Below, in pieces: positions 6,001-9,000 of a stretch of DNA of 64,000 nt; position 1 is the stretch's first letter, and each line of letters starts with the position of its first letter. This DNA comes from Escherichia coli O127:H6 str. E2348/69 (GTDB lineage Bacteria > Pseudomonadota > Gammaproteobacteria > Enterobacterales > Enterobacteriaceae): the NCBI RefSeq assembly GCF_000026545.1, contig NC_011601.1. The stretch is one strand, 5' to 3'. Made by a program: the position numbers.

Positions 6001-9000
6001 CACCGGCAGAAGATCCGGATATTCCGGCATCAGGATATTACGGTGCGGCATCGAGAACGAATGGAAACCAGGTATCATCAAACCGCCCGACACATTTCAG
6101 TTCATGGGCGCGCAGGAGCATTATTCCGGATCGTATGGCAACCGCTATTCTGAACGCAGCCGGGCGCACCTCAGCTTTCATCAGTGGTAAGGCACCGGAA
6201 ATCAAACCCTCGCCCGGCGGCAACACGCCATCGGGGCCGTCTGAAGATGCATCCGTACGCACAATCTCCCTGTTGCCGACAGCCGGAGAGGCTGCTGCGC
6301 AGGGCTGGACCATTAAGGACGGCGGAATTCAGTTGTCGGGTGGTGTATTTAAGATCGCCAAGCAGAGCAATAAAACCTGGTCCCTGATGCATCCGGTGGA
6401 TGACGCAGTCTCCCTGCTGACACGGGGTGGCAGACTGAGCTGTAAGTTTCGACTGTCAGGCGCACTGACCAACAACCAGTTCGGCCTGGGAATTTATCTG
6501 TATACCGATGTAGCGTTACCTGACGTCGTGGCGATGACCGGGACTGGTAACCCGTTCCTGATGTCGTTCTTCACCCAGACCACAGACGGCAAACTGAATC
6601 TGATGCATCACAAGAAAGCAGGAAACACAAAGTTGGGCGAGTTCGGGAATTACAGTAATGACTGGCAGACGCTGGAACTGGTGTTCACCGCCGGCAGTGC
6701 CACGGTTACTCCGAAACTGAATGGAGTGGCTGGCCCGGCATTCCAGGTCATAAAAGACAGTCTGACACTGGGGCTGAATGCGCTGACGCTGACGGATATT
6801 ACCAAAAATGCAGCGTATGGCGTTGAGATAGAAAGTCTGGTGCTGGAGATAAATGCACCGGCATCATCATAAAAAGTGAGCCAGCCAAATGGAAGGTATC
6901 GTTAAACTCACCGGTAGTGTCAGTGGGTCGTCTGAGATGCCTGCATGAGTTATCAGAGCCATCAGTACTTAACTGGTGGCTTTTTTTATTGTTGTCAGCT
7001 TCCGGATAACGGGAGACGGGGTATGGACCAGATGGAAAAAATCACAACAGGTGTGTCATACACCACGTCAGCGGTGGGAACGGGCTACTGGTTCCTGCAG
7101 TTGCTGGACAGGGTTTCCCCGTCTCAGTGGGCGGCAATAGGCGTGCTGGGGAGTCTGCTGTTTGGGCTGCTGACATATCTGACTAACCTGTATTTCAAAA
7201 TCAGAGAGGACCGTCGTAAGGCGGCACGGGGAGAGTAATTCAATGACTCAAAACTATGAACTGATTGTGAAAGGGATCCGCAATTTTGAGAATAAAGTTA
7301 CGGTAACTTTAGCGTTACGGGACAAAAAACGCTTTGACGGTGAAATTTTTGACCTGGACATCTCGCTGGACCGTGTTGAAGGTGCCGCGCTGGAGTTTTA
7401 TGAGGCAGCAGCCAGAAGGAGCATCAGACAGGTCTTCCTGGATGTTGCTGCCGGGTTATGTGAAGGGGATGAGCAGTCGCCGGAAAAGCGCCCCGTAATT
7501 TTAGAGGCGCAGAATGTATGGATAACCTACAAAGGAAAGCTACCGGGAAGAATTACTGGTTCTCTGAAGACTCCTCCGGAATCACAACCTTAAGTCACTG
7601 ACCGGAACAGATAAACCTGTCCGTGGGCAGAAACCGATAAATCCTGATAAATATCCATGAACGCAAAAATCAGATACGGCCTGTCGGCTGCCGTTCTGGC
7701 GCTGATTGCCGCTGGTGCGCCTGCGCCTGACATTCTCGACCAGTTTCTGGATGAAAAGGAAGGTAACCACACCACGGCATACCGTGATGGCGCGGGTATC
7801 TGGACCATCTGCCGCGGTGCCATCCTGGTGGATGGCAAACCTGTCGTTCCGGGCATGAAGTTGTCGAAGGAAAAATGCGACCGGGTTAACGCCATTGAGC
7901 GTGATAAGGCGCTGGCATGGGTGGAGAAAAACATCAAAGTGCCATTGACCGAACCCCAGAAAGCGGGGATCGCGTCATTCTGTCCGTACAACATTGGTCC
8001 CGGTAAGTGTTTCCCGTCGACGTTTTACAGACGAATTAATGCAGGTGATCGCAGGGGAGCATGCGAAGCGATTCGCTGGTGGATTAAGGACGGTGGCAGA
8101 GACTGCCGTATTCGCTCAAATAACTGTTACGGTCAGGTATTCCGTCGTGACCAGGAGAGCGCGCTGGCGTGCTGGGGAATCGACAGATAAGCAGAATATT
8201 TTGCTGAAAAATGAGGTTGGCCAACGCGGGCGGATAACACGAAGTCCTGTGAACTGGCAAAACCTAAGTGAATAAAAGTAAAAACCCCGTTTGTTGGCAG
8301 CAAGCGGGGTTTTGTTTTTATGGCAGTAAGCTATGGGAGGCTGCCTTGATTGATTTTAGCAAACTGATTAGGGAGTTGCGACTCATGATTAGTCAATTAC
8401 CAAACTGGAAATTTTTGCTGGTCTGGAGCATCCCTTTTTTATGGGTAGTATCCCAGTTAATTGTGGCAATTAAGGGGTAGCTATGTCAGACAAACTCATA
8501 ACGCCGGCAAAGGTCCTGTGTGTGATTGTCGGTATTTCATTTTCACTAATGCTGGTTGCTCTTTTTCTGTCCCTCGCCTGGGTGATGTTGTCTTCGTCGG
8601 GGCTGCTGGGGTGACAGTGACTGATGACATCAGCAGAGCGCTGGCTTTTGCTATTAAGTGGGTGGCTGTTGGTATTGCTGTGTCTCCGATGCTGTATGGG
8701 CTGGCAAAACTGGTCATTGCGCTGAAATCGTGAACTTTAAAAAGATGAGTGCTGAACTTATTCGGGCAATGGCATTTGCCATTCGTATTGTGGCCATTGC
8801 TGTTCTGGTCTGGGCAATCCGTTGGTGGTGATATGAACCGTGTTCTGTGTGTGGTGATTATTGTCATGCTGGTAGCCTGTGGTGTGCTTAGTCTGGGGCT
8901 GAATCATTACCGCGATAACGCCATCACCTACAAAGCGCAGCGCGATAAAAAAGTCAGTGAGCTGAAACTGGCGAATGCCACTATTACTGACATGCAGCAG

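Follow-up and report, generated by a model that had tools for sequence, protein, structure and literature searches.

What is a strong terminator-like hairpin doing inside the lysis cassette of a prophage, between the endolysin gene R and the spanin genes Rz and Rz1? We asked this of a 64,000-nucleotide stretch of Escherichia coli O127:H6 str. E2348/69 (contig NC_011601.1), which we call the window. A preliminary description had identified a 9-bp stem and T-run at 8284-8319 as a strong intrinsic terminator placed immediately after the endolysin gene; it held that the small ORFs and Rz/Rz1 beyond would depend either on antiterminated read-through or on a separate promoter, and that such a placement within a lysis operon was unusual. 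The site is built as follows.

8280-8284, plus strand: the A-tract AAAAA, recognised from the sequence, the fold and a diversity of 0.007
8285-8309, plus strand: the stem-loop, whose left arm (8285-8293) reads CCCCGTTTG
8294-8300, plus strand: the loop, TTGGCAG, 7 nt
8301-8309, plus strand: the right arm of the stem, CAAGCGGGG
8310-8319, plus strand: the U-tract, TTTTGTTTTT, which begins at the base of the stem

The stem and T-run are borne out, with nine base pairs, six of them G-C and one U·G, leading into the TTTTGTTTTT run. A consensus scan, in which the pairing extends to 15 pairs with the A/U extensions (again six G-C), placed the hairpin among the strongest terminator-like sites in the first 20 kb of the window. 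The A-tract is able to pair with the proximal U-tract and confers a two-fold symmetry on the site. Folded as plus-strand RNA, positions 8270-8325 reach -24.2 kcal/mol (z = -5.05), a stability equalled by none of 200 dinucleotide shuffles, and the stem-loop stripped of its flanks retains -15.6 kcal/mol (z = -4.1). The hairpin is oriented in the sense of S, R and Rz, which share its strand. With a stable stem-loop, a U-rich tract directly 3' to it and an orientation that follows the transcription unit, its sequence bears all the hallmarks of a strong intrinsic terminator.

The hairpin has the following neighbors.

7657..8190, plus strand: R, a P21-type lysozyme (SAR endolysin), PF00959
8191..8279, plus strand: the conserved 3' untranslated segment of R, delimited by alignments
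8346..8480, plus strand: cargo ORF1, 44 aa with one predicted membrane helix (phrog_6632, E = 1.4e-13)
8483..8614, plus strand: cargo ORF2, 43 aa, hydrophobic, a hypothetical protein in RefSeq (phrog_4906, E = 4.5e-21)
8611..8733, plus strand: cargo ORF3, hydrophobic (phrog_1115, E = 3.7e-25)
8745..8831, plus strand: cargo ORF4, 28 aa with a C-terminal RWW (phrog_4493, E = 3.8e-6)
8833..9327, plus strand: Rz, the i-spanin (PF03245 and PF06085; phrog_13 and phrog_3198, Rz/Rz1)
9053-9238: Rz1, the o-spanin, embedded in Rz

R starts with a hydrophobic SAR-like segment and is named lysozyme/rrrQ in RefSeq; its H-19B homologue is annotated 'similar to bacteriophage 21 R protein'. As described, the hairpin (8285-8309) separates R, which ends at 8190, from the small ORFs, which begin at 8346, and from Rz at 8833. 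It does not follow R immediately: the stop codon at 8188-8190 is succeeded by a 94-nt 3' untranslated stretch before the hairpin. ORF1, which is without annotation in most RefSeq records and has homologues in H-19B and Salmonella phage SPN3UB, uses a TTG start 26 nt past the T-run and a Shine-Dalgarno sequence, GGGAGG, at 8335-8340. The likely GTG start of ORF3 overlaps the stop codon of ORF2 (GTGA; RefSeq places the start at 8578), and the stop codon of ORF4 lies 1 nt upstream of the Rz start codon.

Is the hairpin maintained by selection? We compared 61 haplotypes of R with its untranslated region, taking the 84 four-fold-degenerate sites of R as the neutral proxy. The A-tract, stems and T-run together have a diversity of 0.027, against 0.174 at the four-fold sites (Mann-Whitney p = 2.7e-6), a difference of about six-fold. 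The two arms of the stem stand at 0.018 and 0.049 and the T-run is nearly invariant (0.026 over 8310-8319); the loop varies freely (0.145). Stem pairing is retained in 95.8% of cells across 32 distinct homologues. The copy in Salmonella phage SPN3UB, only 69% identical overall, keeps the hairpin (-22.6 kcal/mol, z = -6.7) with its U·G pair converted to A-U by changes on both sides. These patterns indicate that the hairpin is under purifying selection, which, together with the hallmarks and the sense orientation to the lysis genes, upholds its description as a putative strong terminator. Covariation is thin, at one pair changed on both sides, and the conservation could partly stem from recent common ancestry. 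A scan of species-representative genomes with a conserved 19-mer, which returned one true match (in a short contig labelled Collinsella) and three chance matches, added no diversity usable for covariation.

The same comparison bears on which strand does the work. The minus strand folds less stably than the plus strand (-15.3 kcal/mol, z = -3.4, versus -24.2 kcal/mol), and the one-sided stem substitutions among homologues turn G-C into G·U and U-A into U·G, so that pairing survives only in plus-strand RNA. The stronger fold and these substitutions point to the sense strand as the working strand. A bidirectional terminator, whose role is or includes blocking antisense transcription from lysogen-expressed minus-strand genes beyond Rz before it enters R and S, would fit the symmetric layout of A5 and T-run, the almost invariant A-tract and the minus-strand fold itself, which is followed by TTTTTACTTTTATT; there is a minus-strand gene of the YnfO family at 9747-10007, and bor occupies the equivalent place in related prophages. 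On the minus strand, however, A and C stand unpaired where the plus strand has U·G, every G·U-type substitution seen in the homologues would disrupt pairing, and the closest minus-strand gene is 1.4 kb off, so that we regard such a role as improbable.

How, then, are the genes beyond the hairpin expressed? Between 8191 and 8860 we found no sigma-70-like site at 8/12 matches, against 4.5 +/- 2.6 in shuffles. The interval 6871-8300 holds no promoter-like site besides three weak 8/12 matches far upstream, and from 6079 to 20000 there is no plus-strand sigma-70-like site with at least 9/12 matches. Further upstream lies the gene of an antiterminator.

1845..2534, plus strand: Q, antiterminator gene (PF06323, Phage_antiter_Q, E = 3.5e-91)

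At about 2518-2628 there are a candidate late promoter (2518-2546, 9/12 matches) and a candidate tR' hairpin (2598-2621, with a T7 run), recognised by consensus matches only. Because no promoter is detectable and the Shine-Dalgarno sequence of ORF1 begins only 15 nt past the T-run, the small ORFs and Rz/Rz1 would have to be expressed by read-through, the first of the two routes originally proposed. Since no plus-strand site of at least 9/12 occurs between 6079 and 20000, the same dependence would extend beyond Rz to all downstream structural genes; the terminase genes (10645-12866) are on the same strand as the lysis genes. Polymerase loaded with Q passes intrinsic terminators across many kilobases, and structures of the Q21 and Q-lambda complexes reportedly show the RNA exit channel narrowed by Q. 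The phage's own Q probably bypasses the hairpin.

We conclude, with a probability of roughly 0.6, that the hairpin is a sense-strand Rho-independent terminator that halts non-antiterminated transcription at the boundary between R and the cargo and is passed by Q-modified polymerase. In the lysogen, ordinary RNA polymerase would reach the hairpin by leaking through tR' or from upstream accessory-gene promoters; its transcript would fold the hairpin and be released at the U-tract, which would leave cargo, spanin and structural genes silent. After induction, Q would modify polymerase at the late promoter and make it resistant to hairpin-dependent termination, allowing it to read through this hairpin and the remaining terminators of the operon. 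That transcripts do end here, that Q carries polymerase past the hairpin, and that cargo silencing is the selected benefit, we infer. S and R, which are the dangerous genes, both come before the hairpin, and what would be gained by silencing the downstream genes alone is not obvious. If true, the model explains how cargo can be carried inside a lysis operon without expression in the lysogen, and it would make the hairpin a compact natural Q-responsive part; the understanding of lambdoid late transcription would be unchanged.

Q-modified polymerase would not stop at the hairpin during lytic growth, which makes another selected role attractive. One such role is to stabilise an RNA 3' end: once the transcript had been extended past the site and processed, the hairpin, which is stable, conserved and placed where the R untranslated region ends, would shield the S-ydfR-R message from 3' exonucleases and so set how much holin and endolysin is made relative to the downstream products. 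A stabiliser needs neither a T-run nor an A-tract, however, and both are conserved like the stem (0.026 and 0.007); moreover, no processing site was identified. We consider this role rather unlikely.

The untranslated segment that precedes the terminator is itself unevenly conserved. A patch at 8218-8238 looks neutral (0.168 versus 0.174 at the four-fold sites of R), and a block at 8239-8279 is constrained (0.062 versus 0.174, p = 4e-5). Copies of the segment differ by one-base indels, so that it is unlikely to be coding; for this reason, and because of the neutral-like patch, we rejected the ORFs in or over the region (one of 8 codons, one at 7994-8275 on the plus strand and one at 8133-8303 on the minus strand). 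The constrained block, together with the A-rich run of A-R-N triplets directly before a terminator with a U-tail, would suit a small RNA of the Hfq type made from the R 3' untranslated region, with the hairpin as its terminator and 8239-8279 as its body or seed. Many small RNAs are known nearby in these prophages (STnc100 at 4620-4796 here; the published Pas, AgvB and HnrS). Against this, neither the untranslated region nor the sequence before it yielded a promoter, and Rfam gave no match at E <= 1 across 6500-10500. No Hfq-crosslink peak is listed for O157 Sakai at the R 3' region of Sp6 or Sp10, an indirect comparison since both carry an alternative hairpin; nor would a 3' end form if R were transcribed by Q-modified polymerase only. 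A small RNA is thus very unlikely. An Rfam scan of the whole window at gathering thresholds likewise gave no match at the hairpin. As for identities with described RNAs, we rejected HnrS (EcOnc10-12), whose Sakai Sp10 peak maps to the other strand, immediately beyond Rz; EcOnc33 as an endolysin-trailing RNA, its Sakai Hfq peak being at the 3' end of an esterase gene; and PasA and PasC, which published synteny puts in the interval from the esterase gene to the holin gene rather than behind R.

It is conceivable, although we think it unlikely, that the 8239-8279 block and the hairpin jointly form a functional RNA module and do more than simply stop transcription. They might act as a checkpoint gated by Q, under which harmful small membrane proteins or an antirepressor would go unexpressed before induction; alternatively, they might yield a regulatory RNA derived from the 3' region, produced when non-antiterminated polymerase crosses R. 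In phages whose endolysin is of another kind, a homologous segment of about 85 nt follows an unrelated lipoprotein gene, and none of 34 such copies in other phages is followed by any terminator. If the module reading were true, this homologue would make the segment a portable cis element of lysis cassettes.

Beyond the hairpin, the relationship between prophages changes abruptly. Similarity breaks at the 3' end of the T-run: diversity rises from 0.026 to 0.285 after 8320, and BLAST matches stop at query positions 129-132, corresponding to 8319-8322 of the window. The slot that follows holds a variable set of one to four small membrane-protein ORFs and then Rz/Rz1, and the same hairpin precedes at least six different cargo combinations. 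As read from these alignments, the hairpin marks a mosaic junction between a holin-endolysin module and a variable cargo slot, a hot spot for exchange of small membrane-protein and antirepressor genes in the lysis cassettes of Stx and ExPEC prophages. Within the slot, a promoter-like site on the minus strand at 8489-8460 (9/12 matches, with TG) could give rise to an RNA ending at the hairpin, a candidate for the antisense RNA that overlaps the translation start of a small hydrophobic peptide in a type I toxin-antitoxin pair; such sites are no more frequent than chance predicts (5 found, 6.3 expected), and this one is missing from prophages without ORF2.

The exact coincidence of hairpin and junction, the presence of the preceding 85-nt segment elsewhere without the terminator and the existence of mutated stems would all be expected if the hairpin were a relic without function, one that had once terminated an earlier insert and was retained by hitch-hiking with R and through the use of its conserved sequence as a recombination junction. 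Indeed, about 12% of close homologues have a stem mismatch that nothing compensates, CGAGG (-12 kcal/mol) being one example, so some prophages at least, which may be in decay, can do without the hairpin. A relic would not, however, be expected to have stems and a T-run six-fold less diverse than the neutral proxy around a variable loop, or to retain a hairpin with a compensatory change in a 69%-identical copy; we find this explanation quite improbable.

Nor is the placement unusual. Of 5426 complete E. coli genomes, 2021 (about 37%) carry the same hairpin in the same place, with 3874 occurrences in all, as do phage H-19B and many Stx phages; the late operon of the window holds several other strong plus-strand terminators (at 2986, 3719, 4766, 6955, 12891, 19159 and more). 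The hairpin is an ordinary, common feature, real and evolutionarily conserved. It is annotated at none of its occurrences, and neither its sequence nor a description of an R-Rz terminator was found in the full text of the searchable literature; about 3900 sites in complete E. coli genomes could thus gain an annotation.

Finally, we compared the site with known systems. The closest parallel is with the intrinsic terminators inside Q-dependent lambdoid late operons, such as the tR' terminators of lambda and Stx phages and the lambda terminators beyond tR' that Q-modified polymerase passes. As there, a GC-rich hairpin with a U-tract stands on the sense strand of a late operon whose downstream genes have no detected promoters; upstream lie a Q gene and, as candidates, a late promoter and a tR' hairpin. 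Unlike tR', which directly follows the promoter and whose terminated product in Stx phages is the small RNA StxS (PMC7547250), the hairpin lies between R and Rz, some 5.7 kb beyond the candidate late promoter. A second comparison is with the boundaries of morons, accessory units described from the late regions of lambdoid phages and made up of a promoter, a gene and a terminator (Juhala et al. 2000, as cited in PMC4104026). Like those boundaries, the hairpin adjoins a slot in which related prophages swap unrelated accessory genes. Here, however, the terminator is upstream of the cargo and not downstream, and the cargo has no detected promoter and runs directly into Rz; the cargo thus belongs to the late transcript, and we rejected an autonomous moron.

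Phage 933W and Sakai Sp6 and Sp10 (R-ant-Rz) have the same R gene, the same first 85 or so nucleotides of untranslated region and cargo inserted into the R-Rz interval behind a hairpin whose tail is T-rich, but their hairpin is a different one (GGCACC..GGTGCC) and their cargo is an antirepressor plus one small ORF. The commonest 933W/Sakai-type form of this hairpin is weak (-6.6 kcal/mol, z = -0.7), no better than shuffles, so a strong terminator at the junction of R and cargo is not universal; we accordingly downgraded the alternative hairpin as proof that a terminator is always needed. The Qin prophage of K-12 (essQ-ydfR-rrrQ-rzpQ) has the same families of holin, YdfR and lysozyme genes, but its rrrQ stop overlaps the rzpQ start, leaving out untranslated region, terminator and cargo. 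Relative to Qin, the 640-nt interval between R and Rz in the window is therefore an addition.

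Judged by its sequence, the hairpin downstream of the endolysin gene R is genuine and under selection: a sense-strand intrinsic terminator at a junction where cargo is exchanged, within a late operon that probably depends on Q. It consists of an A-tract (AAAAA, 8280-8284), a 9 bp stem that includes one U·G pair (arms CCCCGTTTG, 8285-8293, and CAAGCGGGG, 8301-8309), a 7 nt loop (TTGGCAG, 8294-8300), and a T-run (TTTTGTTTTT, 8310-8319), which gives the U-tract. Folded with its flanks, the + strand RNA reaches -24.2 kcal/mol (z = -5.05), and none of 200 shuffles was as stable; the stem-loop by itself has -15.6 kcal/mol (z = -4.1). 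In a pattern scan it is one of the region's strongest terminator-like sites. The 9 bp stem and T-run of the preliminary description are therefore borne out, but the hairpin does not follow the endolysin gene immediately, as had been stated: between the stop codon of R and the hairpin lie 94 untranslated nucleotides.

To measure nucleotide diversity, we used 61 distinct haplotypes of R plus its 3' untranslated region (UTR), from 155 copies of the region gathered from viral contigs and genome records. Diversity was 0.174 at the 84 four-fold-degenerate sites of R and 0.026 at its codon positions 1 and 2. Within the hairpin it was 0.007 in the A-tract, 0.018 in the 5' stem arm, 0.049 in the 3' stem arm, 0.026 in the T-run, and 0.145 in the loop, where two apex positions reached 0.44-0.48; directly 3' of the T-run (from 8320) it was 0.285. 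Pooled, the A-tract, stems and T-run gave 0.027, significantly lower than the four-fold sites (Mann-Whitney p = 2.7e-6). Of the stem cells in 32 distinct homologues, 95.8% are paired; shifting the partner by 1-3 columns lowers this to 36-57%. Covariation is thin: a single pair is altered on both sides, from U·G to A-U in Salmonella phage SPN3UB and to G-C in another homologous locus, L006. SPN3UB is 69% identical over the segment, yet retains the U-tract and a hairpin of -22.6 kcal/mol. Uncompensated stem mutations, such as CGAGG at -12 kcal/mol, occur in about 12% of close relatives, so the constraint is real but not absolute. With this pattern in view, we consider it quite unlikely that the hairpin is a hitch-hiking relic.

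One-sided stem changes replace G-C by G·U or U-A by U·G, keeping the pairing in the + strand RNA only. These substitutions argue against a bidirectional terminator directed against antisense transcription, a reading that the symmetric layout and invariant A-tract would suit; the minus-strand hairpin is also weaker, and we regard this explanation as distinctly improbable.

The sense-strand terminator lies in a prophage with the following layout.

Upstream of Q, + strand: gene for a DUF968 protein, then RusA
1845-2534, + strand: Q antiterminator (PF06323, E = 3.5e-91)
About 2518-2628, + strand, after Q: promoter-like site (candidate late promoter, 2518-2546) and short tR'-like hairpin (2598-2621) with a T7 run
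2692-3003, + strand: tRNA cluster with a separate promoter-like site (2692-2720), tRNA-Met, tRNA-Lys and tRNA-Arg (2730-2970), and a terminator (2986-3003)
Between the tRNA cluster and the esterase gene, + strand: accessory genes
5019-6872, + strand: sialate-esterase-like gene
7023-7238, + strand: P21-type class II holin, S (PF04971)
7243-7593, + strand: DUF1327/YdfR protein
7657-8190, + strand: P21-type lysozyme, R (PF00959)
Between the hairpin and Rz, + strand: four small hydrophobic ORFs (cargo)
8833-9327, + strand: Rz, with Rz1 (9053-9238) embedded in it
10645-12866, + strand: terminase

In L001, a close relative of this locus, the major capsid gene lies further downstream in the late region. 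Rfam matches (STnc490, 41275-41398; trp operon leader, 49552-49645; STnc180, 62079-62281) imply that host chromosome, not prophage, makes up the right part of the window.

A standard promoter scan found no + strand site between 6079 and 20000. Relaxing the sigma-70 criterion to 8 of 12 matches still gave none on the + strand of 8191-8860, where shuffles gave 4.5 +/- 2.6. Transcription of the four cargo ORFs, of Rz/Rz1, of terminase and of the structural genes must therefore cross the hairpin. Of the two routes proposed earlier for Rz/Rz1 and the small peptides, read-through thus stands and a promoter of their own was not found by scan; that the read-through is antiterminated is suggested by the Q gene.

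Polymerase loaded with a lambdoid Q protein is resistant to intrinsic terminators over long distances. In the lysogen, polymerase unmodified by Q, which could leak past upstream terminators or start at accessory-gene promoters, would terminate at the hairpin; after induction, polymerase Q-loaded at the late promoter would ignore it. The Stx-phage framework is summarized in PMC7547250. This gate model has a weakness: the dangerous genes, S and R, precede the terminator, so any benefit would have to come from silencing the cargo and downstream genes. That cargo comprises membrane peptides in the window and an antirepressor in other prophages. A role for the hairpin in stabilizing the 3' end of the S-R message is unlikely.

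Similarity between related prophages stops exactly where the T-run ends, and at least six combinations of small membrane-protein ORFs occur between this hairpin and Rz. The cargo ORFs belong to PHROG families 6632, 4906, 1115/3246 and 4493, all of unknown function, and had no Pfam or NCBIfam matches. ORF1 (8346-8480), a 44 aa membrane protein and clear phrog_6632 member, has a TTG start and a Shine-Dalgarno GGGAGG (8335-8340) only 15 nt from the T-run. It is absent from the annotation of most RefSeq records, and its homologues in H-19B and SPN3UB are likewise unannotated. For the small ORF at 8578-8733, RefSeq starts at a CTG (8578); the GTG at 8611, overlapping the preceding stop (GTGA), better fits the PHROG match. 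In the window, H-19B and SPN3UB alike, the last small ORF always ends ...RWW, with its stop 1-3 nt before the Rz start (8820-8835 in the window); its TGGTGGTGA codons probably also serve Rz as a ribosome-binding site, and this would account for the conservation of the C terminus. SPN3UB also has an unannotated, hydrophobic ORF of about 37 aa (2392-2502) that overlaps the endolysin stop codon (ATGAGTAA) and precedes the UTR-segment homologue with its hairpin.

The UTR segment looks portable and partly constrained. Its start (GAATATTTTGCTGAAAAATG and about 65 further nt; window 8194-8279) was also found in 34 viral contigs, among loci L095-L156, where no P21-type R precedes it, and in 0 of these 34 is it followed by a terminator; segment and hairpin are thus separable pieces. 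In L119 (10833-10920), the sole such locus with ORFs listed, the segment lies directly 3' of a 60 aa lipoprotein-like ORF, and by eye the ORF at the endolysin position resembles an M15 peptidase; the remaining loci share their upstream end sequence with L119. A UTR patch of about 20 nt (8218-8238) has neutral-like diversity (0.168) and no indels between conserved flanks, and several of its variants are short palindromes (GTTGGCCAAC, TGGCCA, CGTGGCGCCACG). The block at 8239-8279 is constrained (0.062, p = 4e-5), as it might be in a UTR-derived small RNA ending at the hairpin; against such an RNA stand the lack of a promoter, of an Rfam match and of any Hfq peak listed for the Sakai copies that were inspected, and we judge it very improbable.

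Known prophage RNAs map elsewhere. STnc100 does not overlap the hairpin: its Rfam match (4620-4796, 75.5 bits) ends at a + strand terminator (4766) facing a minus-strand one (4825-4804), and this convergent small-RNA site (4766-4825), upstream of the esterase gene, is the one known from descriptions of AgvB and AsxR-type anti-sRNAs. PasA and PasC are excluded by their position between esterase and holin genes (2026 preprint). In the window this place holds the strong terminator at 6955-6992 (+ strand, 12 pairs and a T7 run), which has no Rfam match and corresponds to them by position only. HnrS (EcOnc10-12) is also excluded, mapping directly downstream of Rz on the opposite strand. An HnrS-like gene may lie at about 9600-9700 of the window. 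This stretch is homologous to the one directly 3' of Rz in Sakai Sp10, which has the minus-strand Hfq peak EcOnc11, given the new name HnrS by a 2025 preprint.

Finally, the terminator is common, of a well-known kind, unannotated, and apparently undescribed. Its surroundings are 100% identical to prophages in many E. coli chromosomes, of ST131 type and others. Of 5426 complete E. coli genomes, 2021 matched a 61 nt hairpin-centered query, at 3874 places in all and as many as eight per genome; none of the places listed has an annotated feature. Further strong + strand terminator-like sites lie in the late region at 2986, 3719, 4766, 6955, 12891, 19159, 24091, 26430, 29988 and 30740, so that an operon-internal terminator is the rule here, and the placement, earlier called unusual, is not.

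The R-hairpin arrangement recurs in phage H-19B and many Stx1- and Stx2-converting phages. Phage 933W and Sakai Sp6 and Sp10 share the first ~85 nt of the UTR but then have a different, weaker hairpin, and between it and Rz an antirepressor gene and a small ORF. In its common 933W variant this hairpin folds no better than shuffles, so we do not build a strong case on it for a terminator being required at the junction. The K-12 Qin prophage has a holin, YdfR and lysozyme of the same families as the window, but there the rrrQ stop overlaps the rzpQ start, without UTR, hairpin or cargo; compared with Qin, the R-Rz interval in the window thus counts as an addition, one that is very widespread.
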